A stretch of DNA of 64,000 bases from Escherichia phage 132. The notes under the pieces are model-generated. The model was not told the DNA's origin and did not search any database. It was given only the letters and a program-made list of their open reading frames with translations. The first letter of the stretch is position 1. Each line of letters opens with the position of its first letter. The DNA is taken from sequence record MZ417521; one strand, 5' to 3'. Below are positions 30,039 to 41,233 of the stretch, piece by piece. The translations under genes were made by a program, and so were the position numbers.

Positions 30039-30341
30039 TTATTTACCTTTAATTACTTTAGCTGCTTCGATAGCCGCTTGCTGAAGGTCATCCATAGACA
30101 TACCGAATTTAGAAGCAAAGTTATCAATTTTCTTTTCGACAGCATTCAAAGGCTTGGCCTGTTTACCTTCATTAGCGCCAGGAAGAGCGAGAATACGCTC
30201 TTTGTCAATATAAAGGCTTACAAGTTTCTTACGGTCTTTATCGGACAAATCGTGAAATGAATGAGCCTTTTTATTTATAGCGGCTTCTAATTTACCTGCA
30301 CTCACTCGCGCTTCAGTAATAAATTCTTGATATGTTTTCAT
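30039..30341 (-). CDS. ipII: Internal protein II-like (capsid-targeted, injected with DNA)
   Basis: 100 aa; N-terminal capsid-targeting sequence MKTYQEFITEA; same size and position as T4 IPII. Confidence 0.6.
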   Translation of the reverse strand: MKTYQEFITEARVSAGKLEAAINKKAHSFHDLSDKDRKKLVSLYIDKERILALPGANEGKQAKPLNAVEKKIDNFASKFGMSMDDLQQAAIEAAKVIKGK

Positions 30342-30354
30342 ATGTTTCCTTTAA

Positions 30355-30378
30355 ATGTAAATAGGCCGTATAGGCCTT
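30355..30378 (-). terminator. Possible terminator after ipIII-like gene
   Basis: AGGCC-UAUAC-GGCCU hairpin with a moderately U-rich tail. Confidence 0.3.
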
Positions 30379-30379
30379 A

Positions 30380-30958
30380 TTAATTACCACGGGCTGCATT
30401 AGCAACGGCGTAAGCGTACTGAACATTAGCGTCTTTAAACGTACCTTTAGAGGTGTCTATTTCTGCCTTAAAGCCGCCTTTAGCCATAACATCGGCAAAT
30501 TCTTTACGGAAAGCCATTGCATCAAGACCTTTCCATGATGATTTATGCTTGGCAAATTCAAGACCAGCGTAGTTGACAGCTTTAGCCAATTTATTATCAA
30601 TGACCCATTTACCAGCTTTAGGCACAAACACCGGGCCTTTCTGTTTAGAGAATAGTTTTAAATTCCAGCGACGAAGGTCACCGTCGGCTTTAACAAAAGC
30701 TGCGTCTAAGTTACTAGCAACAACATCTTCAATATGAGCAAATTTAAGCCCATCAACTTCAATATTTAGATCGTTACGCCAGCGTAGTCCTTCCCAAGCG
30801 AAGGCTTTAAAATCAGAAGCTTTTGTGGCTAGATATCGTTCAAGTGGAGCAGTTTTAGGATCAAAGCCGTTTCCGCCACGATAATTCCACTCGTCCTTAT
30901 TAATGCCTTGGACTTTTCCTGCAAAGGCCTCGGCGATAAATTCTTTATATGTTTTCAT
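30380..30958 (-). CDS. ipIII: Internal protein III-like (capsid-targeted)
   Basis: 192 aa; N-terminus MKTYKEFIAEA; basic Ala/Lys-rich; early promoter upstream. Confidence 0.6.
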   Translation of the reverse strand: MKTYKEFIAEAFAGKVQGINKDEWNYRGGNGFDPKTAPLERYLATKASDFKAFAWEGLRWRNDLNIEVDGLKFAHIEDVVASNLDAAFVKADGDLRRWNLKLFSKQKGPVFVPKAGKWVIDNKLAKAVNYAGLEFAKHKSSWKGLDAMAFRKEFADVMAKGGFKAEIDTSKGTFKDANVQYAYAVANAARGN

Positions 30959-30989
30959 TTTTTGTTTCCTTGTTTGTTTTGATAGAGTA

Positions 30990-31019
30990 ATTATACCATA
31001 TTAATACTTAAGCGTAAAC
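30990..31019 (-). promoter_or_regulatory. Early sigma70-type promoter
   Basis: Minus strand GTTTAC-N18-TGG-TATAAT; upstream of ipIII-like gene. Confidence 0.65.
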
Positions 31020-31022
31020 AAT

Positions 31023-31283
31023 TTAAGCTTTACCGCCAGAAATAATTCCGAAGTTGTTAAAATCGTATTCAATATCGTCAACATCTACTTTAGGACTTGC
31101 TACGACATAAGCAATTTCACTACGTTTTGCATAGGTGTTGATTTCTTTACCATCGCCACCTAAGAAAGAATACCCATTACGTTTTAATGAGCCAAAGTCT
31201 TCCGCATCACCAATGAAAGCTTTAACTTTAAATTTTGGACCTTTGGCATCTGCTTCAATGATAAATTCTTGGTACATTTTCAT
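31023..31283 (-). CDS. Additional capsid-targeted internal protein candidate
   Basis: 86 aa; N-terminus MKMYQEFIIEA; starts directly after the denV stop. Confidence 0.55.
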   Translation of the reverse strand: MKMYQEFIIEADAKGPKFKVKAFIGDAEDFGSLKRNGYSFLGGDGKEINTYAKRSEIAYVVASPKVDVDDIEYDFNNFGIISGGKA

Positions 31284-31289
31284 TTTTCC

Positions 31290-31703
31290 TTAGTAAATTG
31301 ATTTACCATAGTATTTGTACCAAGTCGGGCGCTGAGCAATTTTTTCATCTAAGCGAGCTTGACTTATCGCAATGGACGCTTCGGACGGGACATAATTATT
31401 ACGAAATTCGACAGGGATGTCGGAAATATCCTGGACAGTCGTGTCCTTGATTTTGAAACCACGTTTCAAGCATTCAGCGATTAGCTCGATTTGACGTAAA
31501 CGTAAAAATTCGAGTTTGTCGTAAAAGAATGTTACGTGACCTGTGCCTAAGATAAATGTTGGAGAGATTTTAAAATCCTTTACACGTTTACCGTTTTGAA
31601 CATGTTTACGGACTGCACCAAATACGCGTGGTAATTCACGATACTCAGCCATAAGATGTTGGTCGGTCAGTTCAGAAACAAGTGTTAAATTGATACGAGT
31701 CAT
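31290..31703 (-). CDS. denV: Endonuclease V (pyrimidine-dimer DNA glycosylase/AP lyase)
   Basis: Start at [12 protein letters not shown]... (GGAGGAAATT SD); matches T4 DenV; early promoter upstream. Confidence 0.9.
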
Positions 31704-31730
31704 AATTTCCTCCAAGTAGTTGATGAATGT

Positions 31731-31760
31731 ATAGTATCAAAGTCCTTGGAGGAAGTAAAC
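31731..31760 (-). promoter_or_regulatory. Early sigma70-type promoter
   Basis: Minus strand GTTTAC-N18-TGA-TACTAT; upstream of denV. Confidence 0.6.
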
Positions 31761-31761
31761 A

Positions 31762-33002
<1,241 letters not shown>

Positions 33003-37223: not shown

Positions 37224-37299
37224 TGGTCGAGGCAGTAGGGATCGAACCTACGACCTAGGACTTAGAAGGTCCTTGCTCTTCCTTCTGAGCTATGCCTCG
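37224..37299 (-). tRNA. tRNA-Arg (anticodon TCT)
   Basis: Cloverleaf folded by hand: D stem GCTC/GAGC, anticodon loop CTTCTAA, T arm GTAGG-TTCGATC-CCTAC, 3' CCA encoded. Confidence 0.8.
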
Positions 37300-37303
37300 G
37301 ATT

Positions 37304-37378
37304 TGGCGGACGTGATAGGATTCGAACCTATAACCAATCGCTTAACAGGCGATCGCTCTGCCATTGAGCTACACATCC
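37304..37378 (-). tRNA. tRNA-Asn (anticodon GTT)
   Basis: Acceptor GGATGTG/CACGTCC, anticodon stem ATCGC/GCGAT with loop CTGTTAA, T loop TTCGAAT, CCA encoded. Confidence 0.75.
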
Positions 37379-37382
37379 AAAT

Positions 37383-37469
37383 TGGTGGGGAGTGATGGAG
37401 TCGAACCACCCGAGTCGCAATGACAATGGATTTACAGTCCACACCGCTACCTCTACGGGATAACTCCCC
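37383..37469 (-). tRNA. tRNA-Tyr (anticodon GTA), long variable arm
   Basis: Acceptor GGGGAGT/ACTCCCC, anticodon loop CTGTAAA, long variable arm, T loop TTCGACT, CCA encoded. Confidence 0.7.
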
Positions 37470-37478
37470 AAATTAATT

Positions 37479-37553
37479 TGGTGGCCCTGGGTGGAATTGA
37501 ACCACCATCTGGCGATTATGAGTCGCTTGCTTGAACCTTCCAGCTACAGGGCC
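37479..37553 (-). tRNA. tRNA-Ile/Met (anticodon CAT; likely the lysidine-modified AUA-reading Ile as in T4)
   Basis: Acceptor GGCCCTG/CAGGGCC, anticodon loop CTCATAA, CCA encoded; 1 nt from tRNA-Thr. Confidence 0.75.
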
Positions 37554-37554
37554 T

Positions 37555-37630
37555 TGGTGCTGATTGACGGAATCGAACCGCCGACGTCCTCATTACAAGT
37601 GAGGTGCTCTACCTACTGAGCTAAATCAGC
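37555..37630 (-). tRNA. tRNA-Thr (anticodon TGT)
   Basis: Acceptor GCTGATT/AATCAGC, anticodon stem-loop CCTCA-CTTGTAA-TGAGG, CCA encoded. Confidence 0.8.
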
Positions 37631-37635
37631 AAAAC

Positions 37636-37725
37636 TGGCGGAGGCGATAGGATTTGAACCTATGAGTCGCCGGAGCGACTGCCGGTTTTCAAGACCGGTG
37701 CATTAAACCACTCTGCCACGCCTCC
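37636..37725 (-). tRNA. tRNA-Ser (anticodon TGA), long variable arm
   Basis: Acceptor GGAGGCG/CGCCTCC, anticodon loop CTTGAAA, long variable arm, CCA encoded. Confidence 0.8.
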
Positions 37726-37727
37726 AG

Positions 37728-37801
37728 TCTCCGCGGCAGGATTTGAACCTGCGACATTCTGCTCCCAAAGCAGACGCTCTACCAAACTGAGCTACACGGA
37801 G
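37728..37801 (-). tRNA. tRNA-Pro (anticodon TGG)
   Basis: Anticodon stem TCTGC/GCAGA with loop TTTGGGA, T loop TTCAAAT; CCA not encoded; 2 nt from tRNA-Ser. Confidence 0.75.
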
Positions 37802-37811
37802 TAAATTAAAT

Positions 37812-37885
<74 letters not shown>

Positions 37886-37890
37886 AAATT

Positions 37891-37977
37891 TGGTGCGAGA
37901 AGTGGGACTCGAACCCACAAGGAAATCATTCCGCAGCATTTTAAGTGCTGTGCCTTTACCAATTTGACCATTCTCGC
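37891..37977 (-). tRNA. tRNA-Leu (anticodon TAA), long variable arm
   Basis: Acceptor GCGAGAA/TTCTCGC, anticodon loop CTTAAAA, long variable arm, CCA encoded. Confidence 0.8.
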
Positions 37978-37978
37978 G

Positions 37979-38051
37979 CTGGGAATAAAGGACTCGAACC
38001 TTTGCATCCTGGAATCAAAATCCAGTGCCTTACCAACTTGGCTAATTCCCA
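37979..38051 (-). tRNA. tRNA-Gln (anticodon TTG)
   Basis: Acceptor TGGGAAT/ATTCCCA, anticodon stem-loop CTGGA-TTTTGAT-TCCAG; CCA not encoded; 1 nt from tRNA-Leu. Confidence 0.8.
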
Positions 38052-38148: not shown

Positions 38149-38436
38149 TTACCATTTATGATAATACATGTTTACGATGCATTCAAGACCCAAAGGATTC
38201 TTGAAAATATCATATTCAAGAGGACCTTTTTCTGTTTCAATAAAGAAATCAAAATTTACTGTATTAAATTTACGGTCTTCCTTCACTAATTTAACTTGAG
38301 AAGATGAACGGTCAATGTAAACCTTTTCAACTTCAAAACACGTTAAAATGCCATAATCATCAATCAAGGCTTTAGCTGCTTCTTGATCATATTTATATCC
38401 ATTTTCAATGGACGATACTTTCGCATAAAGAATCAT
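38149..38436 (-). CDS. Hypothetical 95-aa protein
   Basis: ORF track. Confidence 0.5.
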   Translation of the reverse strand: MILYAKVSSIENGYKYDQEAAKALIDDYGILTCFEVEKVYIDRSSSQVKLVKEDRKFNTVNFDFFIETEKGPLEYDIFKNPLGLECIVNMYYHKW

Positions 38437-38438
38437 TA

Positions 38439-38846
38439 TTAACCTTTATCAACAATAGTATGTGTATGGGCATTTACGATTTGCCACCAGTCAAAACTAT
38501 CGCCAAATCGTTTTGATTTATTGTCTTCAATAATTTGGCGTAATTCATCTTCTGTTTCAGCATACGCAATCAAATCATCATATCCACCGCAAGGATAGTA
38601 ATTATCGCCTGCGAACAAAAGAAAATTTACTTTAGATGGGTCTACATAATAATGCTCTTTAGGATATTTAGTTCCTTTCCAATCAGTTACTTCAACATAA
38701 CGATAAGAAATTCCGTCTTTATTACTTTCAACCCAGCTCCATGCTTCAAAAGGAGTATTAAAAACTTTATCAGGTATTAAATTACCTTCAAAATGAGAAG
38801 GATTTGCATAATACCCAGCATAAACATAATATTCGTTAATACTCAT
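38439..38846 (-). CDS. Hypothetical 135-aa protein
   Basis: ORF track. Confidence 0.5.
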   Translation of the reverse strand: MSINEYYVYAGYYANPSHFEGNLIPDKVFNTPFEAWSWVESNKDGISYRYVEVTDWKGTKYPKEHYYVDPSKVNFLLFAGDNYYPCGGYDDLIAYAETEDELRQIIEDNKSKRFGDSFDWWQIVNAHTHTIVDKG

Positions 38847-39032
38847 TTATTCACCTTTAGAAATTTTATCCATAACAATAGCAATTAAACCAATTAAAAA
38901 TGCTACTACAAGTGAAAACACATTTTCTGCTGTAGTTAATAATCCGCATATAAATCCAACAAACATTGAAAAACTAAAAGCGGAAGCAGAAATTGCAATA
39001 GCAACATTTCGAATTAATTCACAACGTTTCAT
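38847..39032 (-). CDS. Small membrane protein (2 TM)
   Basis: 61 aa, hydrophobic; early promoter upstream. Confidence 0.45.
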   Translation of the reverse strand: MKRCELIRNVAIAISASAFSFSMFVGFICGLLTTAENVFSLVVAFLIGLIAIVMDKISKGE

Positions 39033-39060
39033 TTTATTCTCCTCAGTAGTTGATAGGGTA

Positions 39061-39090
39061 ATAGTATCACTACCCTATCTAAAAGTAAAC
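39061..39090 (-). promoter_or_regulatory. Early sigma70-type promoter
   Basis: Minus strand GTTTAC-N18-TGA-TACTAT; upstream of gene 38847..39032. Confidence 0.6.
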
Positions 39091-39102
39091 TGTTTTTATA
39101 AA

Positions 39103-39411
39103 CTATTTTATTCCGCGTGATGCAATTGTATTCTGTCGTTTAGCACCAGTTTGTTTAAAGTCATGATTATCGATTTGATCGGTACGAGCAACACCGAATG
39201 ATGATTTAATCTTAGCTTTAGATCCTTTAGTTATAGAAATAAACATCTCGGAAGCCCCTTTCTTAAAGTCCGAAGCAATTACTTCAACACCGTTCTTAGC
39301 AAGTGACTTCAGAATTGCCTCCGCGTATTCATCGTCAAGACTCGCCTGAGTATTAATAACGAATGTCTTTGGTGCAGCCGCTTCATTGATAAATTCTTTA
39401 AATGTTTTCAT
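39103..39411 (-). CDS. Capsid-targeted internal protein candidate (ipI locus position)
   Basis: 102 aa; N-terminus MKTFKEFINEA; own early promoter. Confidence 0.6.
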   Translation of the reverse strand: MKTFKEFINEAAAPKTFVINTQASLDDEYAEAILKSLAKNGVEVIASDFKKGASEMFISITKGSKAKIKSSFGVARTDQIDNHDFKQTGAKRQNTIASRGIK

Positions 39412-39441
39412 TTTATTTTCCTAATTAATTTTGATGAGATA

Positions 39442-39471
39442 ATAGTACCACAACCCTATTTAAAAGTAAAC
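39442..39471 (-). promoter_or_regulatory. Early sigma70-type promoter
   Basis: Minus strand GTTTAC-N18-TGG-TACTAT; upstream of the internal-protein gene 39103..39411. Confidence 0.6.
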
Positions 39472-39744
39472 TCATTTTAAATAAATTGCATATTTTTTAT
39501 AACCCGCTGACTCATGACGAAGACCCTTATCATTAGCAAAACGCTCAATGTTGTTAATTTGATTCTGGTCAAGTTCAGAGATGTCAAACACGAAAAAGTT
39601 ACGTTTGTTACCAACTGTTACATAGTCAGTTAAATCAATATCATATAGGTAATTGATGTCAGCAATCAAAGTCTTGACAGCTTTGCTAATTTTTACTTTT
39701 TCGTTAAAAGTAGCTTCATTGATAAATTCTTTAAATGTTTTCAT
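39472..39744 (-). CDS. Capsid-targeted internal protein candidate (second gene at the ipI locus)
   Basis: 90 aa from internal ATG, N-terminus MKTFKEFINEA; GGAGAA SD; own early-type promoter. Confidence 0.55.
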   Translation of the reverse strand: MKTFKEFINEATFNEKVKISKAVKTLIADINYLYDIDLTDYVTVGNKRNFFVFDISELDQNQINNIERFANDKGLRHESAGYKKYAIYLK

Positions 39745-39780
39745 TTTATTCTCCAATCACTCATTTGTTTTGATAGGGTA

Positions 39781-39810
39781 ATAGTATCACAACTAAAACC
39801 CCGTGTAAAT
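39781..39810 (-). promoter_or_regulatory. Early-type promoter (-35 variant ATTTAC)
   Basis: Minus strand ATTTAC-N18-TGA-TACTAT; upstream of the internal-protein gene 39472..39744. Confidence 0.5.
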
Positions 39811-39822
39811 AACTTTGTGAAA

Positions 39823-40507
<685 letters not shown>

Positions 40508-40508
<1 letters not shown>

Positions 40509-41233
40509 TATAGTACCTTTAGTGTATTTTTAATTTTAGAAAAAAGTTCTTCAAGAGAACCATCGTTTGTAATTACTAAATCGCCATCACGAATTGGCAA
40601 TCCAGCTTCTGTAATATGAGTATCATTGGATTTTTGACCAGGACGAACTACATGAATTACTGTAGCACCCATCGCCCTAGCCGCATCCATTTCATGATCT
40701 TGACGAGTATCAGGAACGATATAATAATCATAACCTGAGTTAAATTTATCAAGATAATCTAAAGCAAATAATTTTACCCAATACATGCGGTCGAAGTTAT
40801 TAACAATCAAATCCGTACCTAGGGCTTGCATCAGACGACGGACTGACCATTGATCTTCAATATTATTTATAACGTCAGCAATCTTGTTGAATGCTACGAA
40901 ATTAACTGATTCTTTTCCTTCGTCATCAAAAACGAATACACCTTTAATTGGGCTTTTACTATTAAGATAGCAAAATGCTTGTTCCATAATAGTAATTACT
41001 TCTAATTTAGTCAGATTTAAATTAGTCTCACGATCATAGTCAATTCCTTCAAACTCTTTACGAGTTAAGCAAGGATAGTCAGTGTTTGCCGCAAATACGC
41101 CCCATGCATAAGCCAATGCATCCTTAATAGGACCAGCAAGTTGATATTTAACTGCAGAATAATTATTCATGATAAAATCTGCAGTAGTATCTTTTCCACT
41201 ACGCTTTACACCACTTAAAAAGATTAGTTTCAT
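40508..41233 (-). CDS. 1: Deoxynucleoside monophosphate kinase gp1
   Basis: 241 aa; P-loop GVKRSGKDT; T4 gp1 length. Confidence 0.9.

Follow-up and report, generated by a model that had tools for sequence, protein, structure and literature searches.

Layout of the locus

The window analyzed here, a stretch of 64,000 nucleotides from Escherichia phage 132 (MZ417521), is a mosaic Tequatrovirus (T4-like) segment that shares, over 18 kb, about 96% identity with several isolates of known sequence. All genes of the region discussed lie on the minus strand, in the order gene 1 (40508-41233), 57A (40278-40508), 57B (39823-40278), ip9 (39472-39744), ip7 (39103-39411), tRNA.4 (38847-39032), tRNA.3 (38439-38846), tRNA.2 (38149-38436), and an array of ten tRNA genes reported by ARAGORN (37224-38051). 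The two ORFs in the middle of this series, of 90 and 102 aa, encode putative internal head protein precursors, and both start with the residues MKTFKEFINEA. A previous reading of this DNA, made from the letters alone (the sequence-only reading), had described the two ORFs with exact coordinates. The 90 aa of ip9 are counted from the ATG; a TTG upstream would add 4 aa.

The locus is delimited by two conserved genes. The left anchor is 57B, an Acb1 anti-CBASS phosphodiesterase by Pfam (PF23474, E = 2.6e-60), and the right anchor is tRNA.4, a 61-aa hydrophobic protein (phrog_1692, E = 6e-35, and the annotations of RB32 and T4). The slot occupied by ip9 and ip7 between these anchors is the one that holds Ip5, Ip9 and Ip7 in RB32, and in T4 a single internal protein (IP) gene, ipI. 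The sequence-only reading had placed T4 ipI between the tRNA region and 57B, which is right as to the single gene and its equivalent position, but passes over tRNA.2 to tRNA.4, conserved in both genomes.

Two side observations concern the neighbors. 57B, which adjoins the IP cassettes on their upstream side, is labeled 'RNA ligase' in PHROGs and in many GenBank records; its Pfam assignment as Acb1 sets the IP locus in an anti-defense neighborhood. The tRNA cluster has ten genes in the window, including Asn, Tyr and one with a CAU anticodon, compared with eight in the T4 annotation of the same cluster, and the segB ORF that interrupts the tRNA array is absent from the window.

Identity of the two genes

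Judged by sequence, these ORFs are ip9 and ip7, independent cassettes of the hypervariable IP locus between 57B and tRNA.4. The 102-aa protein is identical to RB32 Ip7 at all 102 residues, and the 90-aa protein is identical to RB32 Ip9 at 85 of 90 (94%) and has 92% identity to UniProt Q38376 ('Ip9, phage RB15'). Two families described as 'internal head protein' match them, phrog_2667 over residues 1-102 of Ip7 (E = 2.1e-41) and phrog_7673 for Ip9 (E = 1e-54). The RB32 record (NC_008515) calls each an internal head protein, 'similar to RB15 and K3 Ip7/Ip9 ... flanked by 43 bp direct repeat'. These are the genes of RB15, K3 and RB32. In RB32, as in the window, ip9 comes before ip7 and the pair has the same position relative to 57B; the RB32 annotation notes the flanking direct repeat that the window also has, and RB32 differs in having a third cassette, Ip5, ahead of Ip9 and Ip7. 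Scans of Ip7 and Ip9 against Pfam and NCBIfam return zero matches over threshold, and sequence searches of the PDB with both proteins give no meaningful match. By tblastn, 283 phage records contain the Ip7 body, among them T2 and T4-like phages of Klebsiella and Enterobacter, and 199 contain the Ip9 body.

These genes are not new. They have names, are represented in family databases and have been known since 1994, and the original observation is a correct re-discovery of an ordinary, textbook hypervariable locus of T-even phages.

The bodies of the two proteins are unrelated. BLASTP of Ip7 against Ip9 aligns only the 11 shared N-terminal residues. The window has four more ORFs with the same type of N-terminus, all on the minus strand (30039-30341, 30380-30958, 31023-31283 and 31762-32043). 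They form the other IP locus (30039-32043), where T4 has two genes (ipIII and ipII) and the window has four, of 100, 192, 86 and 93 aa. A body-only BLASTP comparison among all six window ORFs finds nothing better than E = 0.1, which bears out the earlier claim that the two bodies differ from each other and from the other four. The 86-aa ORF starts with MKMYQEF, its third residue being Met. After predicted cleavage, two of the four second-locus proteins are acidic or neutral (pI 5.3 and 6.3).

As an example of a mixed sequence, the 77-aa protein P0017 from Escherichia phage OLB35, annotated 'ip7 protein', joins Ip7 residues ~29-72 to Ip9 residues ~58-90 and has no targeting sequence. This chimera either arose in nature by illegitimate recombination or reflects an artifact of assembly or annotation.

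The capsid targeting sequence

According to a review of the T4 head (PMC9026906), the capsid targeting sequence (CTS) consists of 10 N-terminal residues resembling MKTYQEFIAE. In IPIII, residues 1-10 are enough for targeting to the head; targeting involves residues 4 and 7, processing involves residues 8 and 10, and the gp21 protease cuts after the Glu of the motif L/I-x-E (PMC9026906). Both ORFs have Phe at position 4 (as T4 IPI does), Phe at position 7, and the gp21 motif as I8-N9-E10 followed by Ala, so that the description of these N-termini as capsid-targeting agrees with the published features. Among the CTS ORFs surveyed in related loci, position 4 is Tyr or Phe in 59 of 59, and position 7 is Phe in 56 of 59. 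Cleavage after Glu10 would leave mature products of about 92 aa for Ip7* (pI 9.6) and about 80 aa for Ip9* (pI 8.2).

The same peptide is encoded in many different ways. We compared the CTS codons of related loci in a set of 62 unique 5′ coding sequences. In this set, the Phe7 codon shows 510 synonymous pairwise differences against 61 non-synonymous ones, and all of ACT, ACA, ACC and ACG are in use for Thr3. The CTS residues are kept while their codons vary, which indicates selection on the peptide and not on the DNA alone. In the literature searched, we found no report of virion proteomics or N-terminal sequencing of Ip7 or Ip9.

Promoters, stem-loops, and the 42-nt module

The beginnings of the two genes are almost the same at the DNA level as well. 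A 42-nt direct repeat that spans the RBS and codons 1-11, GGA[A/G]AATAAAATGAAAACATTTAAAGAATTTATCAATGAAGC, has exactly two copies in the window, 98% alike, at the start of ip7 (39380-39421, minus strand) and of ip9 (39713-39754, minus strand). In 100 dinucleotide shuffles this module has 0 matches.

Upstream lie the three members of a 49-nt family of promoter repeats, one each before tRNA.4 (39050-39098), ip7 (39431-39479) and ip9 (39770-39818). On the coding strand the layout resembles that of T4 early promoters: G/ATTTAC, a 17-nt spacer, G(A/G)TACTAT, the RBS GGA(G/A)AATAAA, and the ATG. The alignment of these -35, spacer and -10 elements upholds what was first read, an early promoter copy in front of each gene.

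The three copies differ in detail. The ip9 element (39745-39822, minus strand) has the -35 ATTTAC, the -10 GATACTAT and the RBS GGAG, and a promoter scan reports a match at 39809-39781 with a TG extension. Its stem is interrupted (GGGGT..TAGT / ACTA..ACCCT), with a fold of -14.3 kcal/mol and z = -1.15. We considered this stem as 'chimeric' and dropped the idea, since the GGGGTTTTAGT...ACCC form recurs in many loci; from such sequence comparison the ip9 promoter is best described as a variant in its own right, whose stem has an interior loop, and not as a fresh hybrid. The ip7 element (39412-39471, minus strand) has the -35 GTTTAC and the -10 GGTACTAT. Its left half is of the tRNA.4 type and its right half is of the T4 ipI type, the right half CTCATCAAAATTAATTAGGAAAATAAA being identical to the T4 sequence upstream of ipI, and the ip7 promoter looks like a hybrid of a left and a right half. 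The ip7 stem is degenerate and does not fold (z = +1.4 and +0.1). The third copy is the tRNA.4 promoter (39033-39102, minus strand), the right-hand boundary of the variable segment. It has a perfect 12-bp stem over the -10, at -16.5 kcal/mol and z = -2.83 (z = -4.1 in a second estimate), and it is the only one of the three IP-locus copies in the window with a strong stem.

Across related loci, the inverted repeats around the -10 have arms that vary by lineage and yet stay complementary: TGATGAGGTA/TACCTCATCA, GATAGGGTA/TACCCTATC, GGTCTATAG/CTATAGACC, AGGGCTAT/ATAGCCCT, and GATGGGATAA/TTATCCCATC. A single consensus stem for all loci was ruled out, because the center of the palindrome moves by 3-4 nt between lineages. 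For that reason we calculated folding z-scores element by element, and for 49 unique elements of related loci the median is -2.85, with 59% below -2.

Other early-promoter-like sites on the minus strand of the window, at ~15023, ~22919 and ~36053, have strong hairpins over the -10 (z = -4.1, -4.9 and -6.3), so the combination of promoter and stem-loop is not limited to the IP loci. Elsewhere, in locus L021 of our survey, about 80 nt upstream of a 102-aa ip7 homolog, the -10/right-arm segment 'gatactattacctcatcaa' is tandemly duplicated inside the promoter element, which looks like a trace left by slipped or unequal recombination within the module.

Neither gene has a canonical late promoter (TATAAATA) directly upstream; the nearest copy on the same strand is at 40864-40871. 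Thus, late supply of Ip7 and Ip9 would need read-through, for instance from that site. In T4, the IPs are abundant both early and late (Kutter et al. 2018), which accounts for finding an early promoter on a protein that is packaged in the head.

Cassette exchange among related loci

We compared the locus across 40 loci, 36 of them IMG/VR loci anchored on 57B, and the others from RB32, F25, P922 and T4. In this set, the interval between 57B and tRNA.4 holds from 0 to 5 CTS ORFs, with 16 unrelated body families, and it is empty in two loci (L009 and L010). Ip9 and Ip7 are neighbors in the window, F25, RB32, L028 and L021; in other loci each occurs alone or with other partners.

The points at which similarity stops are informative. 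Against T4, the left homology stops at 39723, seven codons into ip9, and the right homology resumes at 39070, inside the tRNA.4 promoter. The joints with P922, which has ipI and ip7, fall at 39723 and 39454, and those with L035, which has ip7 only, at 39713 and 39455. Thus 39723 and 39713 fall within the CTS, and 39454 and 39070 within promoters. Recombination between the two 42-nt copies would remove the ip9 body and leave an ip7-only architecture as in L035, and the joints of L035 make it resemble the product of such an event.

The CTS itself is also exchanged between bodies. The variant MKTYQEFINE occurs on four body families, and we find six CTS variants for Ip9 and four for Ip7. The window Ip9 bears an Ip7-type CTS and the RB32 Ip9 does not, with 4 of the 5 differences between the two Ip9 proteins in residues 4-12. 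Cassette exchange, which had been proposed from the window alone, is borne out by the presence, absence and replacement of cassettes in the 40 loci: cassettes are replaced from locus to locus with breakpoints inside a module of about 110 nt formed by promoter, RBS and CTS.

This model has been published. Cassette shuffling at the IP locus by means of promoter/stem-loop repeats goes back to Repoila 1994, in the summary given by Arbiol 2010 (PMC2839356), and Comeau et al. 2014 restates the hypothesis. Rao & Black 2010 describes the IPs as diverse defense proteins with only a CTS in common. The closest described arrangement is that of the PeSL (promoter-early stem-loop) cassettes of RB49 and phi1 and of the analogous T-even elements associated with IP genes (Arbiol 2010, PMC2839356; Comeau 2014), in which a repeated early promoter with an overlapping stem-loop surrounds small variable ORFs. 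The recombination breakpoints are likewise inside the promoter/stem-loop elements; the differences are that in the window the homology module reaches into the coding region, that is, the CTS, and that of the window's copies just the one at tRNA.4 retains a strong stem, the ip7 copy being degenerate.

Seven of the loci (L005, L008, L012, L013, L015, L035 and L036) also have CTS-like ORFs of 153-157 aa, starting with MKSYAQFLNEA or MKTYNEFLTEQ. Upstream of them we see a terminator hairpin rich in GC together with a TATAAATA late promoter, and no early promoter. The window has no ORF of this kind.

Predicted structures and the Ip9 body outside T4-like phages

The models for the two proteins are different. 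Ip9 is predicted to consist of the CTS MKTFKEFINE (residues 1-10), a linker (~11-19), and a compact alpha-beta-beta-alpha-beta-beta domain (~20-90), with an AF2 model of pLDDT 87 and pTM 0.72. For Ip7 the prediction is the CTS (1-10), a beta-alpha-beta-beta core (~14-62), and a basic C-terminal tail (76-102) that is predicted to be disordered; from a shallow alignment of 12 sequences, the AF2 model has an overall pLDDT of 64, with ~84 in the core and <50 in the tail. The Lys/Arg-rich residues of this tail are invariant in the family alignment, and a disordered tail so conserved suggests, as far as the model goes, a segment that folds on a partner. A Foldseek search with the Ip7 model gives no match below E = 0.058.

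The Ip9 body is also found without a CTS in other phages. Kagunavirus siphoviruses have a free-standing, CTS-less homolog of 72 aa as the first gene of an early-looking operon; one of them, JSSK01_64, has 50% identity to the Ip9 body and matches phrog_7673 with E = 6.8e-27. In the Ackermannviridae, the Ip9-like domain is part of large proteins of 535-1096 aa (755, 1096 and 535 aa). In the Kuttervirus protein maane_82 (755 aa) it forms the C-terminal 80 residues (34% identity, E = 1e-12), and in a 1096-aa protein of Aglimvirinae it is an internal domain. The CTS-less homologs lie at L041:2507-2725, L042:467-2734 (domain residues 670-752) and L043:1-3067. In the family alignment they begin exactly at the end of the T4-type linker, which supports an origin of Ip9 as a CTS added to pre-existing cargo.

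The existence of these CTS-less relatives outside T4-like phages is possibly the one new detail of this analysis. They hint that the cargo of Ip9, about 70 aa long, may be a portable accessory domain whose use as an internal protein came later, an idea that we hold tentatively and would not yet bet on. If it were true, the IP locus would recruit ready-made anti-host modules of unrelated phages by placing a promoter and a CTS before them. In that case Ip9 would act on a host system shared by the hosts of phages that differ widely in DNA chemistry, rather than on a type IV nuclease specific for glucosyl-hmC, and the null GmrSD screens described below would be explained. In any case, CTS-less Ip9 domains in phages unlikely to have glucosyl-hmC DNA weaken the guess of type IV restriction as the target of Ip9. 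In practice, these relatives provide a handle, since the search for the target can be carried out in Kagunavirus and Kuttervirus hosts too.

Function

Several proteins of the IP loci have known targets. Ip1, Ip2 and Ip3 each inhibit one variant of the GmrSD type IV nuclease (Silas et al. 2025, PMC12373910). In phage Bas37, bas37_0260 (234 nt, 77 aa), another cassette of the same locus adjoining an 85-aa Ip5-like gene, inhibits McrBC, and the Bas37 genes at the IP locus are non-essential (HIDEN-SEQ preprint). Thus four IP-locus proteins (Ip1, Ip2, Ip3 and Bas37_0260) have known targets, and all four are inhibitors of type IV nucleases. Moreover, IPIII is active in the cytoplasm even without its CTS (Srikant et al. 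2022).

T4 IPI/IPI*, a GmrSD inhibitor, shares with Ip7 and Ip9 the slot, the kind of early promoter, the MKTFKEF start, the small size, and the logic of packaging and injection. It differs in having a longer propeptide (MKTFKEFTSTTTPV...) and a body without sequence similarity to either protein: the homology to an IPI*-type GmrSD inhibitor is absent, the IPI body belonging to our family FAM 5, against FAM 1 and 2. It also differs in that it inhibits GmrSD; neither Ip7 nor Ip9 is known to inhibit any GmrSD variant. T4 Ip2 and Ip3 and Bas37_0260 are alike in bearing a CTS, being non-essential and residing in IP loci, and provide the precedent for subtype-specific anti-restriction, but their bodies are unrelated to Ip7 and Ip9. 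We considered whether ip7 or ip9 could be the McrBC inhibitor Bas37_0260, and length and architecture rule it out. The Bas37 architecture (77 aa plus an 85-aa Ip5-like gene) is that of L005, and the 77-aa cassette of L005 and L036, which we equate with Bas37_0260 by length and neighbors and not by sequence, is unrelated to Ip7 and Ip9.

From these precedents, we propose the following mechanism. The Ip7 and Ip9 precursors would be made early and, through read-through, late, as in T4. The 10-residue CTS would direct each precursor to the scaffolding core of the prohead, as it does for T4 IPIII, and the gp21 protease would cut after Glu10 to leave Ip7* and Ip9* in the DNA-filled head. The mature proteins would then be injected with the genome to neutralize a strain-specific first-line host defense before the phage genes are expressed. 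The likeliest target would be a modification-dependent (type IV) nuclease of a subtype outside those screened. New combinations would arise by homologous recombination of the repeated promoter/CTS modules in co-infecting relatives.

The identity as ip9 and ip7 together with delivery to the capsid we consider very probable. The explanation as a whole, that is, CTS-delivered ip9 and ip7 cassettes with an anti-defense purpose, we regard as probable. For the anti-defense role taken separately, which is drawn by analogy with the proteins of known target, we lean to the affirmative by a modest amount.

The sequence-only reading had suggested assaying each gene for protection against type IV restriction. 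That experiment was already published for ip4-10: against further GmrSD variants there was nothing reproducible, and a signal for ip7 with CLS_011 failed on repeat (Silas 2025, PMC12373910). Given Repoila 1994, Arbiol 2010 and Comeau 2014 together with Silas 2025, both the interpretation and the proposed experiment were in the literature, as were the model of shuffling and the hypothesis of anti-restriction, and the interpretation restates established knowledge. Each time an IP cassette has been paired with its target, a further subtype of restriction enzyme has come to light, along with a determinant of host range that matters for phage therapy.

The alternative that survives best keeps Ip7 and Ip9 as injected anti-defense effectors, and gives them, in place of type IV enzymes, a different first-line host system or host factor as target, common to the hosts of phages without hmC DNA. 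We find it rather unlikely, even though the negative results of ip7 and ip9 against the screened GmrSD variants speak for it, as does the use of the Ip9 domain in the 72-aa Kagunavirus protein and in the 535-1096-aa proteins of Ackermannviridae. All four of the known targets at IP loci are type IV nucleases, the diversity of GmrSD far exceeds the panel screened, and Kuttervirus DNA is hypermodified as well.

It could also be that Ip7 and Ip9 are mainly structural, small basic proteins for charge neutralization or DNA organization with no specific host target. The predicted pI values of the mature products fit this idea, as does the conserved, disordered, Lys/Arg-rich tail of Ip7, and charge balancing by abundant IPs is mentioned in the literature. 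A structural role is nevertheless improbable: the locus can be empty, as it is in L009 and L010, and the Bas37 genes there, which are different cassettes, are dispensable. Two CTS proteins of the second locus are acidic or neutral, and Ip9 is a folded domain used too by phages without IP packaging. Moreover, hypervariability of the locus combined with strong conservation within families fits an arms race rather than bulk charge.

Still less credible, in our view, is a shared 5′ end that works only as a DNA module for expression and recombination, with early, cytoplasmic, unpackaged products. It is true that both genes have early promoters and lack a late one of their own, the Ip9 homologs elsewhere do without the peptide, and the presence of Ip7 and Ip9 in the virion is a prediction. 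But the peptide is retained through synonymous change, its conserved residues are those that experiments on IPIII have linked to targeting and processing (4, 7, 8 and 10), and in T4, IPs that bear this peptide are packaged and are likewise made early.

Finally, the idea that a single ip gene was duplicated in tandem and the two bodies then diverged is very hard to believe despite the head-to-tail order and the near-identical promoter, RBS and CTS (42 nt at 98%), for the bodies have no detectable similarity and differ in predicted topology, each gene occurs in other genomes alone or with other partners, and the Ip9 body has CTS-less homologs in unrelated phages. With ip9 and ip7 as independent cassettes, the identical CTSs in the window represent secondary homogenization, given that the CTSs of RB32 Ip9 and Ip7 differ.
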